Assembly (NCBI RefSeq): GCF_900112305.1
Contig: NZ_FOKT01000002.1
Span: 497,228 to 529,227, forward strand
Origin: Microbulbifer thermotolerans
GTDB taxonomy: Bacteria > Pseudomonadota > Gammaproteobacteria > Pseudomonadales > Cellvibrionaceae
Length of the DNA: 32,000 nucleotides
Reading direction: 5' to 3'
In this document: positions 24,570 to 31,492 of the stretch, piece by piece
Layout: each line of letters begins with the position of its first letter
How positions within the stretch are numbered: the first letter of the stretch is position 1
Translations under genes and position numbers: made by a program
The notes under the pieces: model-generated
The model's database searches: none
Seen by the model: the letters and a program-made list of their open reading frames with translations, nothing else
What the model was told of the DNA's origin: nothing

Positions 24570-24614
24570 CACGGGCCGTCCCGTGAACTTCTATACGACA
24601 GCGGTCGTCCGCTG
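24570..24614 (-). promoter_or_regulatory. guanidine-II (mini-ykkC) riboswitch candidate, internal to the operon
   Basis: Minus-strand RNA reads CAGCGG-ACGA-CCGCUG, then a 13-nt linker, then CACGGG-ACGG-CCCGUG, then CGGGAUACCACC-AUG. These are two 6-bp hairpins, each with an ACGR tetraloop closed by GG/CC. The second ends 12 nt before the carboxylase start codon. Confidence 0.75.
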
Positions 24615-28839: not shown

Positions 28840-28934
28840 TCCTCCCGGGCTTTTATCCCGCCGTGTAACCTTTCACTGAAAGGTCGAGTGCTCTCGGACC
28901 AGTCACCGTTATAAAACAGCCGGAACCCTAGCGC
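28840..28934 (-). promoter_or_regulatory. guanidine-I riboswitch (ykkC-yxkD motif, subtype 1) aptamer
   Basis: Minus-strand RNA reads GCGCUAGGGUUCCGGCUGUUUUAUAACGGUGACUGGUCCGAGAGCACUCGACCUUUCAGUGAAAGGUUACACGGCGGGAUAAAAGCCCGGGAGGAC. All three hallmark blocks are present in the right order: CUAGGGUUCCG, GGUCCGAGAG and ACACGGCGGGAUAAAAGCCCGGGAG. The aptamer lies about 65 nt upstream of the first gene's ATG. Confidence 0.9.
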
Positions 28935-28989
28935 TCCATTTTGCGAATTGTCTGTCACGTAGTGTCAGGAGTACGGACACAAATAAACA

Positions 28990-29005
28990 ATCAAAATACG
29001 TGCCA
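28990..29005 (-). promoter_or_regulatory. sigma-54-like promoter candidate for the guanidine operon (imperfect -12)
   Basis: The minus strand reads TGGCAC-GTATT-TTGAT. The -24 box is perfect and the spacing is correct, but the -12 element is GA instead of GC. It lies about 55 nt upstream of the riboswitch. I found no convincing sigma-70 -35/-10 pair nearby. Confidence 0.3.
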
Positions 29006-29118
29006 AACATAAAAGTCTGTCTTTGCGCTTCATTTCCATATAAAAGTCCAAACAGAACAATATCCAGCCTTTTTGCGCACCACTTTGAATCAATCTAAAC
29101 CTCTGAACGCCCACTTTT

Positions 29119-29136
29119 GGCGCAACACAATGCGCC
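29119..29136. promoter_or_regulatory. perfect 6-6-6 inverted repeat GGCGCA-ACACAA-TGCGCC (candidate activator/enhancer site)
   Basis: Read directly from the sequence. It lies about 115 bp upstream of the minus-strand sigma-54-like box and about 270 bp upstream of the plus-strand one. Confidence 0.3.
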
Positions 29137-29172
29137 GACATCGCATTACTCCAAAGCACATACATTTTTACC

Positions 29173-29196
29173 CATGGAATAAACCAATATTCCATG
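29173..29196. promoter_or_regulatory. perfect 9-6-9 inverted repeat CATGGAATA-AACCAA-TATTCCATG (candidate operator)
   Basis: Read directly from the sequence. It is the longest perfect palindrome in the divergent control region. Confidence 0.3.
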
Positions 29197-29401
29197 CATG
29201 TAGCCAAGACCCAACCTTTGTTGGTGCTTTCTTCGCTTCACCAGCCTCTATCACAATAAAATTGTTCCACAAAGATGCACCAAATCCCTCTGAAAATACT
29301 CTTAAAACCCTCTCTTTCAGAAGAGCTATCCCATCACTTGCGCTTCCTATACCCGCCAGCATATTCCTGCACACCGGGAAACATACTCTCCAGTGGCCGA
29401 G

Positions 29402-29417
29402 TGGCATAATTAGTGCA
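29402..29417 (+). promoter_or_regulatory. sigma-54 (RpoN) type promoter candidate for the oxygenase unit
   Basis: The sequence is TGGCAT-AATTA-GTGCA, with GG (29403-04) and GC (29415-16) at the canonical GG-N10-GC spacing. It matches 14 of the 16 positions of TGGCAC-N5-TTGCA counting the five N positions, or 9 of the 11 specified bases. It lies about 120 nt upstream of the ATG, which leaves room for the riboswitch leader. Confidence 0.55.
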
Positions 29418-29427
29418 TAAAAATTGA

Positions 29428-29443
29428 GTTACATAGTTACATA
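29428..29443 (+). repeat. tandem direct repeat GTTACATA x2 at the predicted transcription start
   Basis: Two perfect adjacent 8-mers lie 11 nt downstream of the -12 GC. Confidence 0.5.
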
Positions 29444-29458
29444 AAGTATTCCCCCCAA

Positions 29459-29506
29459 CCGGGACGACCCGGCCGGCATCCGCCGGAACCGCTCTGGACG
29501 GCCAGA
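29459..29506 (+). promoter_or_regulatory. guanidine-II (mini-ykkC) riboswitch candidate in the oxygenase leader
   Basis: CCGGG-ACGA-CCCGG (29459-29472), then a 20-nt linker, then TCTGG-ACGG-CCAGA (29493-29506). Both ACGR loops are closed by GG/CC. They are followed by CCUUU..AAAGG pairing potential over the AAGGAG ribosome-binding site (29524-29529) and the ATG at 29538. Confidence 0.75.
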
Positions 29507-29537
29507 AACCTTTTTATTGCACAAAGGAGACTGGAGC

Positions 29538-30563
29538 ATGAGCAAACCCACCCGCACCTTTGACCACATCCCTGTTGTCGATATCAGCGGCCTTTATTCC
29601 GATAAATTGGCAGATCGGCAGCAAGTGGCCAAACAAATCGCTGATGCAGCCACCAACGTGGGCTTCCTGTACATTACGGGCCACAGAATTCCACAGTCGT
29701 TGATCGATGCCCTGCTAATCCGCACCAAGGAATTCTTCGCCCGCCCTCACCGGGAAAAAATGCGCTACTACATCGGCAATTCATCCAACCATAGCGGTTA
29801 TGTCCCCGAAGGCGAAGAGCAGTTTTACGGTGGGAAAATCGATCACAAAGAAGCCTATGACATCAATAATGATCTTGGCCATCTGAGCCAGCAAGGGCCA
29901 ATGATAGGCCCGACCCAATGGCCGGATATGGCTGGTTTTAAAGAGGATGTCAGCGCTTATTACCAGGCTGCGTTAAATTTAGGTCAGTTACTCTTCCGGG
30001 GCTTTGCGCTTGCACTCGACCTGCCGGAAGATACCTTTGACGATAAAGTCAAAAACCCTCCCAGCCAGCTTCGACTGATCCATTACCCTTACAACCCCGA
30101 TGCTCAGGACCGGGAGGGCATCGGTGCTCATACAGATTACGAGTGCTTTACCCTGCTATTACCAACTACCGATGGCTTGGAAGTTCTAAACGATAACGGA
30201 GAATGGATTGATGCGCCCGTAATTCCTGGGAGCTTTGTTGTCAATATCGGCGATATGATGGAAATACTCAGTAATGGCCGTTTTATCGCCACCTCACATA
30301 GAGTCCGCAAAGTAAAAGAAGAGCGCTATTCTTTCCCATTGTTTTGCAGTTGTGACTACGACACGATCATTGAACCTCTCGTCGATCCTGCTCCCGGAAT
30401 TAAGCCTGGGACCTATCAACCCATGTGCTGTGGAGATCATTTACTCGCTCAAACCATGCATACGTTTCACTACTTGAAGGAGCGGGTAGCAAAAGGCGAG
30501 TTGCAATTCCCAGATTCCTCGGCCGATGCATCATCCTTCGGCAAACTGCGGGAGGTTTTATAA
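29538..30563 (+). CDS. 2-oxoglutarate/Fe(II)-dependent oxygenase (isopenicillin-N-synthase / ethylene-forming-enzyme-like family)
   Basis: Start set at the ATG at 29538 (AAGGAG upstream). The N-terminal DIOX_N-like region reads IPVVDISGL...GFLYITGHRI. The facial triad is GIGAHTDYE (H-x-D) plus SHRV, and the 2OG-binding Arg-x-Ser is RYSF. The SGYVPEGEE block resembles EFE's SGYVASGEE. Confidence 0.85.
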   Translation: MSKPTRTFDHIPVVDISGLYSDKLADRQQVAKQIADAATNVGFLYITGHRIPQSLIDALLIRTKEFFARPHREKMRYYIGNSSNHSGYVPEGEEQFYGGKIDHKEAYDINNDLGHLSQQGPMIGPTQWPDMAGFKEDVSAYYQAALNLGQLLFRGFALALDLPEDTFDDKVKNPPSQLRLIHYPYNPDAQDREGIGAHTDYECFTLLLPTTDGLEVLNDNGEWIDAPVIPGSFVVNIGDMMEILSNGRFIATSHRVRKVKEERYSFPLFCSCDYDTIIEPLVDPAPGIKPGTYQPMCCGDHLLAQTMHTFHYLKERVAKGELQFPDSSADASSFGKLREVL

Positions 30564-30565
30564 TC

Positions 30566-31492
30566 ATGCACCTTGCCGAGCTCACTTCTGTAATCAATTC
30601 ACCCACTGCTAACACTGTGCCGCGCTGGATGCGCGGCTGCTTTCAGCGGCGCAGTATCAGTTTTGCCAACGGCCAGACGGATACAGATACCCGCGTATTT
30701 TGGCTGCAGTCTAACCTTCTGACCATTGACCTGCGTTTACCGGTCACCGCACAGCAGGAAAAAGAAGGCGACGATATTCAAAAAAAAGCAGATTACGAAG
30801 GTTGGTATGCGCATGCCGACTGGGATGGAAAACAACTTCAGTGGCGTGGTGGTGCCACTTATCAGTTGCACAATCGCTGGCCGGAACCGGCGATTTTACA
30901 GCGCATCGGCAATTGCATGATGGAATTTGCCCCGAGTGGTATTTATGTCGAGGATTGGCGGTTACTTTCAGATCAACCTGGGCCACTCATTGGACTGGAG
31001 CTGATCAGTGAGACAGACCTCAGCAGCGGCACAACGTCTCCGCGCAAGGGGGCACTGATTATCTGCGGCCGGCATGCCGGACTGGTAATCGACCGCCCCC
31101 ACCCGATCAGCGATAGTGGAGGCCTGTTAAAGCAACGATTGACGAATCTACAGATTGATGAAAGCGAACGGAGCAATCTGTTGGACTTTGAAACTTCAGT
31201 GGCTTTGGGATCGCTGTCTGAAGGGTTCACCGTACAGCACAGCCTGCATAAATACCGCTTGCAACAACCCCTGCTTTCTCTGACCGGGTTTGAGCTCGAT
31301 GCAAAATCGGGTTACCTGCGCCAGCGCACAGAAGACAACGGCAAAGCAGTAGAGCGGCTCTTTCGTATTGATTGTTGCGAAATGGAATTTCCCTTTACCC
31401 CGTGTACACCGTCGTCAGAGGATAGCCTCGAGTGGTTCCAGCGGGAGGCACCGACTCTGACGCGCTATACCCGTGTGCTTTATCAGAATTGA
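30566..31492 (+). CDS. hypothetical protein, no recognisable family (308 aa), translationally coupled to the oxygenase
   Basis: Start set at the ATG at 30566, 2 nt after the oxygenase TAA, with GGGAGG 10 nt upstream. It has no signal peptide or transmembrane segment and no motif I can place. The 47-codon upstream extension in the ORF track overlaps the oxygenase and was rejected. Confidence 0.6.
   Translation: MHLAELTSVINSPTANTVPRWMRGCFQRRSISFANGQTDTDTRVFWLQSNLLTIDLRLPVTAQQEKEGDDIQKKADYEGWYAHADWDGKQLQWRGGATYQLHNRWPEPAILQRIGNCMMEFAPSGIYVEDWRLLSDQPGPLIGLELISETDLSSGTTSPRKGALIICGRHAGLVIDRPHPISDSGGLLKQRLTNLQIDESERSNLLDFETSVALGSLSEGFTVQHSLHKYRLQQPLLSLTGFELDAKSGYLRQRTEDNGKAVERLFRIDCCEMEFPFTPCTPSSEDSLEWFQREAPTLTRYTRVLYQN

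Follow-up and report, generated by a model that had tools for sequence, protein, structure and literature searches.

A probable guanidine-II-type ON switch in the leader of an mgdH/mgdL-like gene pair of Microbulbifer thermotolerans

How is a gene for a 2-oxoglutarate (2OG)/Fe(II) dioxygenase controlled when two short hairpins precede its start codon and a guanidine carboxylase operon is encoded next to it? The question is raised by a stretch of 32,000 nucleotides (nt) of Microbulbifer thermotolerans (contig NZ_FOKT01000002.1, positions 497,228-529,227), which was analysed at its full length and is termed the window here. A preliminary description of this DNA proposed that the hairpin pair in the oxygenase leader is a guanidine-II (mini-ykkC) riboswitch. 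According to the present analysis, the element is very likely a functional guanidine-II-type translational ON switch, which controls an mgdH/mgdL-like unit for the demethylation of methylguanidine. Both the riboswitch class and the enzyme chemistry are already known, and the leader of this gene pair is a new arrangement of known parts.

The hairpin pair and its conservation

All features of the leader lie on the plus strand. Hairpin P1 (CCGGG-ACGA-CCCGG, 29459-29472) and hairpin P2 (UCUGG-ACGG-CCAGA, 29493-29506), which correspond to the first and second hairpins of a guanidine-II aptamer, are separated by a linker of 20 nt (29473-29492). The two tandem hairpins are capped by the tetraloops ACGA (29464-67) and ACGG (29498-501), which is a hallmark of the guanidine-II family (RF01068), and both P1 and P2 carry the two G-C loop-closing pairs (GGACGRCC) that likewise characterize it. 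The family is also known by its position upstream of guanidine-related genes, and here an MgdH orthologue and an MgdL-like gene follow downstream, with a carboxylase operon adjacent. The stretch between P2 and the AUG start codon of mgdH (29538), AAACCUUUUUAUUGCACAAAGGAGACUGGAGC, includes the Shine-Dalgarno sequence AAGGAG (29524-29529) at a distance of 18 nt from P2. In the preliminary description, the hairpin pair, its coordinates, the 20-nt spacing and the placement between a sigma-54-type promoter and AAGGAG/ATG had been given exactly as they are read in the sequence.

The octamer GGACGRCC occurs four times in the window against 3.1 expected, which is not above chance, and all four copies belong to two pairs, namely the mgdH leader and a second pair at 24571-24614 on the minus strand, before the carboxylase gene. 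The earlier argument that this recurrence speaks against chance holds for the paired same-strand arrangement at gene starts, which is above chance, but not for the bare octamer count.

The evidence that carries the assignment is comparative. The profile of the 308-amino-acid (aa) family to which the second gene belongs was scanned against 185,579 species genomes, and 80 loci were returned; in 72 of these, the mgdL-like gene is directly preceded by an mgdH orthologue. Often the pair either has a gene for a substrate-binding protein behind it or, like the pair in the window, is transcribed divergently from the carboxylase operon. The comparison of orthologous leaders, which had been suggested in the preliminary description, was strongly positive: tandem ACGR hairpins were found in the 300 nt before mgdH in 66 of the 72 loci, distributed over Gamma- and Betaproteobacteria. 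The cores of these 66 leaders read CCGGG-ACGA-CCCGG in P1 and CUGG-ACGR-CCAG in P2, and the linkers measure 10-78 nt. One of the six exceptions without hairpins is cut by its contig end. Five loci (L028, L037, L045, L068 and L070) hold adjacent mgdH and mgdL-like genes with no guanidine-II hairpins upstream, and in L045 a guanidine-I switch is present further downstream instead.

When both strands of 1.48 Mb of related loci were searched, 82 tandem pairs of GGACGRCC hairpins were obtained, comprising 64 before mgdH or mgdL, 13 before gca, and five just past cgdB, at places where gca lies outside the locus or is truncated by its end; no pair was found at any other position in this material.

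At the level of single base pairs, only ACGA or ACGG loops occur across the orthologues, and neither hairpin varies in its closing pair. The second pair likewise never varies in P2, and in P1 it is G-C in 46 of 50 distinct sequences. Among these 50 sequences, five of the six P1 pairs change on both sides, and the observed covariation was reached by none of 500 column shuffles on four of five measures and by one of 500 on the fifth. In 49 distinct sequences the P2 core CUGG-ACGR-CCAG is invariant, and the three outer pairs of P2 covary.

A covariance model, termed R1, was built from 47 distinct orthologous leaders with the window excluded. It hits the window at 29456-29509 with 49.6 bits (E = 3.7e-11), which is the sole window match with E < 0.1; the next best match reaches 10.6 bits, and the second hairpin pair, before the carboxylase gene, reaches 7.5 bits. 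Over the whole set of loci, R1 returned 65 sites at E <= 0.01, all but one of which stand in front of mgdH or mgdL. The preliminary assignment of a guanidine-II-type tandem ACGR element to the 5' leader of the oxygenase gene is hence supported by its presence in 66 of 72 loci, by covariation and by a model that was free of the window.

The linker holds a further hairpin (CCGGC-AUCC-GCCGG, 29473-29486), which abuts P1 directly and is formed in the minimum-free-energy fold. A linker hairpin is present in 56 of 60 distinct linkers (mean z = -1.7) with highly variable sequences, begins 0-1 nt 3' of P1 in most leaders, and is missing only from the short-linker Ectopseudomonas group. Judged from these sequences, the mgdH leaders would form a recognisable guanidine-II subtype below the Rfam threshold, with a conserved linker hairpin, which appears undescribed.

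In two loci an mgdH-type guanidine-II element stands directly before the mgdL-like gene (L023:9893-9956, 41.6 bits with R1; L073:9156-9208, 38 bits with R1), and no mgdH was detected by tblastn in either. In the 20-kb locus L072, from Ectopseudomonas-type genomes, three guanidine-I switches are found together with a gca-type and an mgdH-type guanidine-II. The gene order of L072 is repeated in L078 and L080, both of which carry the two guanidine-II types, and in all three the ABC (ATP-binding cassette) transporter genes are split to either side of mgdHL. The locus and leader of L027, a record titled Gordonia sp. IEGM753, are essentially those of the Pseudomonas fluorescens group, which points to an assembly that is mislabelled or contaminated, or else to recent transfer.

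The gene pair and the probable ligand

The first gene of the unit (29538-30563, +) encodes a 2OG/Fe(II) dioxygenase of 341 aa, which is a putative methylguanidine hydroxylase. The second gene (30566-31492, +), a long-type mgdL-like gene that begins 2 nt after the mgdH stop codon, encodes the 308-aa protein, which is a putative N-(hydroxymethyl)guanidine lyase. The prototypes of both enzymes come from Vreelandella boliviensis, where MgdH is the methylguanidine hydroxylase, a 2OG dioxygenase, and MgdL is the N-(hydroxymethyl)guanidine lyase, whose residues D49 and R51 were identified as essential by mutagenesis (Sinn et al., Nat Commun 2025, PMC12508155). There, mgdH and mgdL lie between gca and atzF in an operon controlled by guanidine-I and guanidine-II (PMC12508155). 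The statement in the preliminary description that a 2OG oxygenase with an orphan protein is not a characterised target is thus not supported, given the V. boliviensis MgdH/MgdL pair in its guanidine-I/II-regulated operon (PMC12508155).

The window oxygenase contains the Pfam domains DIOX_N and 2OG-FeII_Oxy and shares 53% identity with V. boliviensis MgdH over 333 aa (E = 3e-122). The residues H198/D200/H253 (HxD...H) and R262/S264 (RxS) are aligned and identical between the two. The mgdH genes of the synteny group are 51-74% identical to the window enzyme, and V. boliviensis MgdH falls within that range.

The 308-aa protein, for which a hypothetical protein of Microbulbifer thermotolerans gave a match of 100% identity, belongs to no Pfam family. 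A BLASTP comparison with V. boliviensis MgdL gave 25% identity over 124 aa (E = 2e-5), and the profile-profile alignment of the two families by hhalign gave 98% probability (E = 1.7e-13, 208 columns). The catalytic D49/R51 pair of MgdL aligns with D55 and R57 of the DLRLP motif, two residues that do not vary among 18 family members, and the protein also shares the YVExW motif with MgdL. An AlphaFold2 (ColabFold) model of the protein is mostly beta, a putative barrel (predicted local distance difference test score, pLDDT, 86.5; predicted template modelling score, pTM, 0.87), for which Foldseek against the PDB retrieved only weak matches to lipocalin-like barrels (E ~3e-3); the modelled fold would be compatible with the beta-barrel proposed for MgdL. 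By its sequence, the protein is a remote MgdL homologue of a distinct, longer subfamily. The preliminary label "orphan" is hence replaced, given the hhalign probability of 98% and the retained catalytic Asp/Arg.

It is unlikely, in our estimate, that the riboswitch is real and the enzyme pair nevertheless acts on another substituted guanidine, with a lyase from a different, longer family. Such a reading could draw on the size of the 308-aa protein, compared with 250 aa for MgdL, on the 25% identity over 124 aa, and on the genera checked for the long family (Microbulbifer, Variovorax, Gilvimarinus and Marinimicrobium), which are absent from the published MgdL alignment; in many genomes, moreover, the pair is followed by its own substrate-binding-protein gene. 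However, with 53% identity to the characterised enzyme, the window MgdH resembles it as much as it does other members of its own synteny group; both the catalytic Asp/Arg of MgdL and its YVExW motif are kept; and of the compounds offered to the prototype MgdH, only methyl- and dimethylguanidine were accepted (PMC12508155).

A second possibility concerns the ligand: with the same RNA architecture, the subtype might prefer methylguanidine, the substrate of the enzyme, over guanidine and would in effect be a methylguanidine riboswitch, which we consider rather improbable. The leaders do form a distinct subtype, with a U-A third pair in P2, a linker hairpin and scores below the Rfam gathering level, and the gca-type switch reaches 7.5 bits with R1; in addition, the subtype controls only methylguanidine-specific enzymes. 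The guanidine-II element before gca in V. boliviensis already binds methylguanidine as well as guanidine, with dissociation constants (KD) of 93 uM for guanidine and 83 uM for methylguanidine (PMC12508155). Equal binding of both ligands, however, suffices to explain the regulation, and the sequences give no sign of discrimination against guanidine. The ACGR loops and GG/CC closing pairs, which constitute the ligand-contacting part in guanidine-II structures, are also unchanged in the subtype.

The expression platform and the promoter

The window leader, folded at minimum free energy, contains P1 and the linker hairpin but lacks P2. The predicted competitor of P2 is a sequestering (OFF) hairpin at 29491-29543 (+), whose design is conserved across loci and recurs in the folds of very different leader sequences. 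Its predicted pairings are CCAG 29502-05, from the 3' arm of P2, with CUGG 29531-34; CCUUU 29509-13 with AAAGG 29523-27 in the Shine-Dalgarno region; and GCUC 29491-94 with GAGC 29540-43. The second of these had been put forward in the preliminary description as an OFF pairing and is recovered in the fold as part of a larger conserved hairpin. A 5' leader with a sequesterable ribosome-binding site, i.e., a translational platform, is a further hallmark of guanidine-II and is predicted here from the folds.

Ensemble calculations for 65 distinct ligand-free leaders gave a probability of 0.90 for P1 and 0.12 for P2, and the P2 3' arm together with the next 10 nt takes 57% of the pairing of the nucleotides from the Shine-Dalgarno to the AUG. 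The mean energy of the sequestering hairpin is -11.2 kcal/mol with the P2 3' arm, -4.7 kcal/mol without it, and -8.0 kcal/mol with the arm shuffled, the native arm being better than the shuffled one in 59 of 62 leaders. Moreover, in 40 of 45 distinct leaders the arm forms a stabler duplex with its cognate start region than non-cognate combinations do (-7.2 versus -4.7 kcal/mol), which indicates that the strands of the putative switching helix have co-evolved.

A sigma-54-type promoter with -24 GG and -12 GC elements (TGGCAT-N5-GTGCA) is located at 29402-29417 (+). In the window by itself the sigma-54 pattern gives 20 matches at <=2 mismatches against 21 expected and is not enriched. In 50 of 67 orthologous leaders, a GG-N10-GC motif lies <=160 nt upstream of P1, against an expectation of 0.066 per 155 nt, and its position in most of the 50 is 40-90 nt upstream of the P1 loop. 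Since the matches within the window are at the chance level, the promoter is called only from this positional conservation, which upholds the sigma-54-type promoter of the preliminary description. A scan of 28900-29600 found no sigma-70-like promoter. From these sequences, dual control by nitrogen status and ligand would be a reasonable inference, and the placement of a guanidine-II switch behind a conserved sigma-54 promoter appears to be undescribed.

Two kinds of repeat were observed between promoter and aptamer. In the window, a perfect tandem direct repeat, GTTACATA GTTACATA, is present at 29428-29443 (+) between the sigma-54-type promoter and P1, which would place it on the predicted transcription start or immediately behind it. 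In L012, L016, L017, L025 and other Pseudomonas loci, an inverted repeat GCACC-N6-GGTGC is found in the same interval, about 15-45 nt upstream of P1, and its counterpart in L041 reads GCATC...GATGC, a symmetrical change. The Pseudomonas repeat may represent a palindrome of the NtrC type or, alternatively, a hairpin of the 5' RNA.

The anatomy, conservation and enzyme assignments described above are results of computational tools, and the ligand and the ON logic are taken over from the guanidine-II family and from V. boliviensis. On this basis, the following mechanism is proposed. Transcription would most likely proceed from the sigma-54 promoter, which would place the unit under nitrogen-limitation control. 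Without ligand, P1 and the adjacent linker hairpin are predicted to form, and the P2 3' arm (CCAG...) and the U-rich stretch would pair with the region from the Shine-Dalgarno to the start codon, by which initiation would be blocked. The ligand should be guanidine and very probably also methylguanidine, as judged from the V. boliviensis guanidine-II with its KD of ~90 uM for both. Its binding would stabilise P2 as well as the loop-loop contact (ACGR-ACGR) of P2 with P1, and the stabilised P2 would remove the base of the sequestering hairpin, so that the ribosome could bind. The products, MgdH and the long-type MgdL, would turn methylguanidine into guanidine and formaldehyde, and the resulting guanidine would feed the divergently encoded guanidine carboxylase pathway.

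According to a further reading, which we hold to be very unlikely, P2 and the AACCUUUUUA behind it would form an intrinsic terminator, such that ligand-stabilised P2 would terminate transcription and the element would be an OFF switch or attenuator. A simple scan does flag 29493-29506 with its T-run as terminator-like, and a U-rich stretch follows P2 in most leaders. Yet the stem has only 5 base pairs and the U-run begins after a gap of 4 nt; the U-rich stretch is complementary to the Shine-Dalgarno purines in every lineage and pairs with them in the folds; and a sub-threshold FourU match on the sequestering hairpin of a Pseudomonas leader points in this direction too. To our knowledge, every guanidine switch described so far is an ON switch, and it would be physiologically senseless to place a catabolic enzyme under an OFF switch. 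The terminator reading was rejected on account of the short stem, the 4-nt gap and the pairing of the U-stretch with the Shine-Dalgarno.

Several points weigh against a functional translational ON switch. Binding and switching of the mgdH leader RNA are predictions made by analogy. The four inner P2 pairs never vary and are uninformative on structure, and the hairpins were picked with pairing as a requirement, which inflates the percentage of paired cells. Forcing P2 in silico raised the predicted accessibility of the Shine-Dalgarno only from 0.27 to 0.30, and for this reason a weakened rather than a fully opened sequestering hairpin is claimed. RNAalifold on a MAFFT alignment gave no consensus sequestering helix for the region from P2 to the start, because the helix register shifts between lineages; the per-sequence energy tests and the cognate/non-cognate pairing tests were used in its place. 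With regard to Rfam, in the covariance search that had been suggested, the leader did come out as the best match to RF01068 (E = 0.0011 in a 201-nt scan), but its 26.3 bits are under the gathering score of 32, and the leader went unreported when the whole window was scanned at that score. Orthologous leaders fall short as well: a Pseudomonas leader reached 23.3 bits, and none of the mgdH leaders in seven loci scanned passed the gathering level, while the gca-type guanidine-II copies of the same seven loci passed RF01068 with 43-45 bits. The RF01068 model alone would leave the case undecided; the question is settled by the comparative evidence, that is, the hairpin pair kept before orthologues, the covariation in P1 and the independent model. 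A fortuitous pair of GC-rich hairpins that regulates nothing, with which the unremarkable GGACGRCC count of the window and the sub-threshold Rfam score would agree, is of negligible probability and is effectively refuted by the same position in 66 of 72 loci, the covariation, and the 49.6 bits from the window-free model.

Genomic context and comparison with known systems

The divergent operon on the minus strand is headed by a guanidine-I riboswitch at 28840-28942 (Rfam RF00442, 95.9 bits). Behind it follow the genes of an ABC substrate-binding protein, a permease and an ATPase, and then two DUF1989 proteins (cgdA/cgdB). After these come the gca-type guanidine-II at 24571-24614, gca for a 1214-aa urea/guanidine carboxylase-type biotin carboxylase, and atzF for allophanate hydrolase. 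This ABC-cgdAB-gca-atzF set is a classical guanidine carboxylase operon. The hairpin pair before the carboxylase gene, which the preliminary description had also noticed, proved to be a bona fide Rfam hit (RF01068, 32.5 bits, gathering score 32), and the window carries three guanidine switches in a span of 5 kb. A sigma-54-like -24 element was observed in TGGCACGTATTTTGAT at 28990-29005 (-), 48 nt upstream of the guanidine-I aptamer, with a -12 element that reads GA where GC is expected, and the site may be the promoter of the divergent operon.

In the searchable literature, no description was found of a guanidine-II switch dedicated to mgdHL, although earlier listings of dioxygenase-associated mini-ykkC elements in primary papers are possible, and none was found there of the subtype features, the invisibility at the Rfam threshold, the coupling to sigma-54, or the long MgdL family. 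The MgdH/MgdL pathway would be extended from a few halophiles to many genera, including Pseudomonas, Stutzerimonas, Gilvimarinus, Cellvibrio, Microbulbifer and Variovorax, in which methylguanidine demethylation would usually travel as a self-contained module with its own riboswitch. Meanwhile, the long MgdL-type family would gain a probable function, and the sigma-54 promoter followed by a guanidine-II switch may serve as a compact example of combined control by nitrogen status and ligand. The Rfam guanidine-II threshold would systematically miss the mgdH subtype, so that counts of such switches and of the genes they regulate would be underestimates. A bolder proposal is that these leaders are a distinct subtype, always coupled to sigma-54 and to methylguanidine demethylation genes, possibly tuned to methylguanidine, even over guanidine, and operating as an AND gate; this remains speculative, and we doubt that it holds in full. 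If it were true, the promoter and switch would integrate nitrogen starvation AND (methyl)guanidine in a module widespread in Pseudomonas, Cellvibrionaceae, Variovorax and relatives.

Three known systems invite comparison. With FourU-type and other anti-Shine-Dalgarno hairpins, the sequestering hairpin shares a U run that pairs with the AGGA of the ribosome-binding site. A Pseudomonas hairpin (L012:8907-8956) was observed to match the FourU thermometer with 20.1 bits (gathering score 60), which is due to the anti-Shine-Dalgarno pairing UUUU:AGGA. The hairpin of the window type differs in that it shares the P2 3' arm with an aptamer and is thereby coupled to it, and nothing suggests temperature sensing.

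The gca-type guanidine-II, as represented by RF01068, resembles the mgdH type in its tandem hairpins with ACGR tetraloops and G-C/G-C closing, its variable linker, its 5' leader site just upstream of the Shine-Dalgarno, the guanidine-metabolism genes downstream, and its presumed action as a translational ON switch. The P2 core of the mgdH type, however, is invariably CUGG/CCAG, whereas the gca type has GGG/CCC, and its third P2 pair is an invariant U-A, unlike in the gca type. The mgdH-type linker nearly always carries a hairpin stacked by P1, in contrast with the short and A-rich gca-type linkers of the same genomes. Moreover, the Shine-Dalgarno of the mgdH type lies ~20 nt past P2, inside a distinct sequestering hairpin into which the 3' arm of P2 is recruited, and this again sets it apart from the gca type.

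In common with mgdH-mgdL of V. boliviensis, the window pair consists of a 2OG/Fe(II) dioxygenase gene and, directly after it, the gene of a small protein, which in the window is predicted to be beta-rich; both pairs have a genetic link with guanidine riboswitches and with the guanidine carboxylase pathway. In V. boliviensis (locus L081), mgdH, which overlaps the gca stop codon, lacks a separate leader, and the riboswitches are limited to a guanidine-I at the head of the operon and a guanidine-II in front of gca (43.1 bits). The V. boliviensis pair is thus contained within the operon and is served by a 250-aa MgdL, whereas the window pair is a separate divergent unit with its own sigma-54-type promoter and guanidine-II element, in which the lyase partner is the 308-aa remote homologue.

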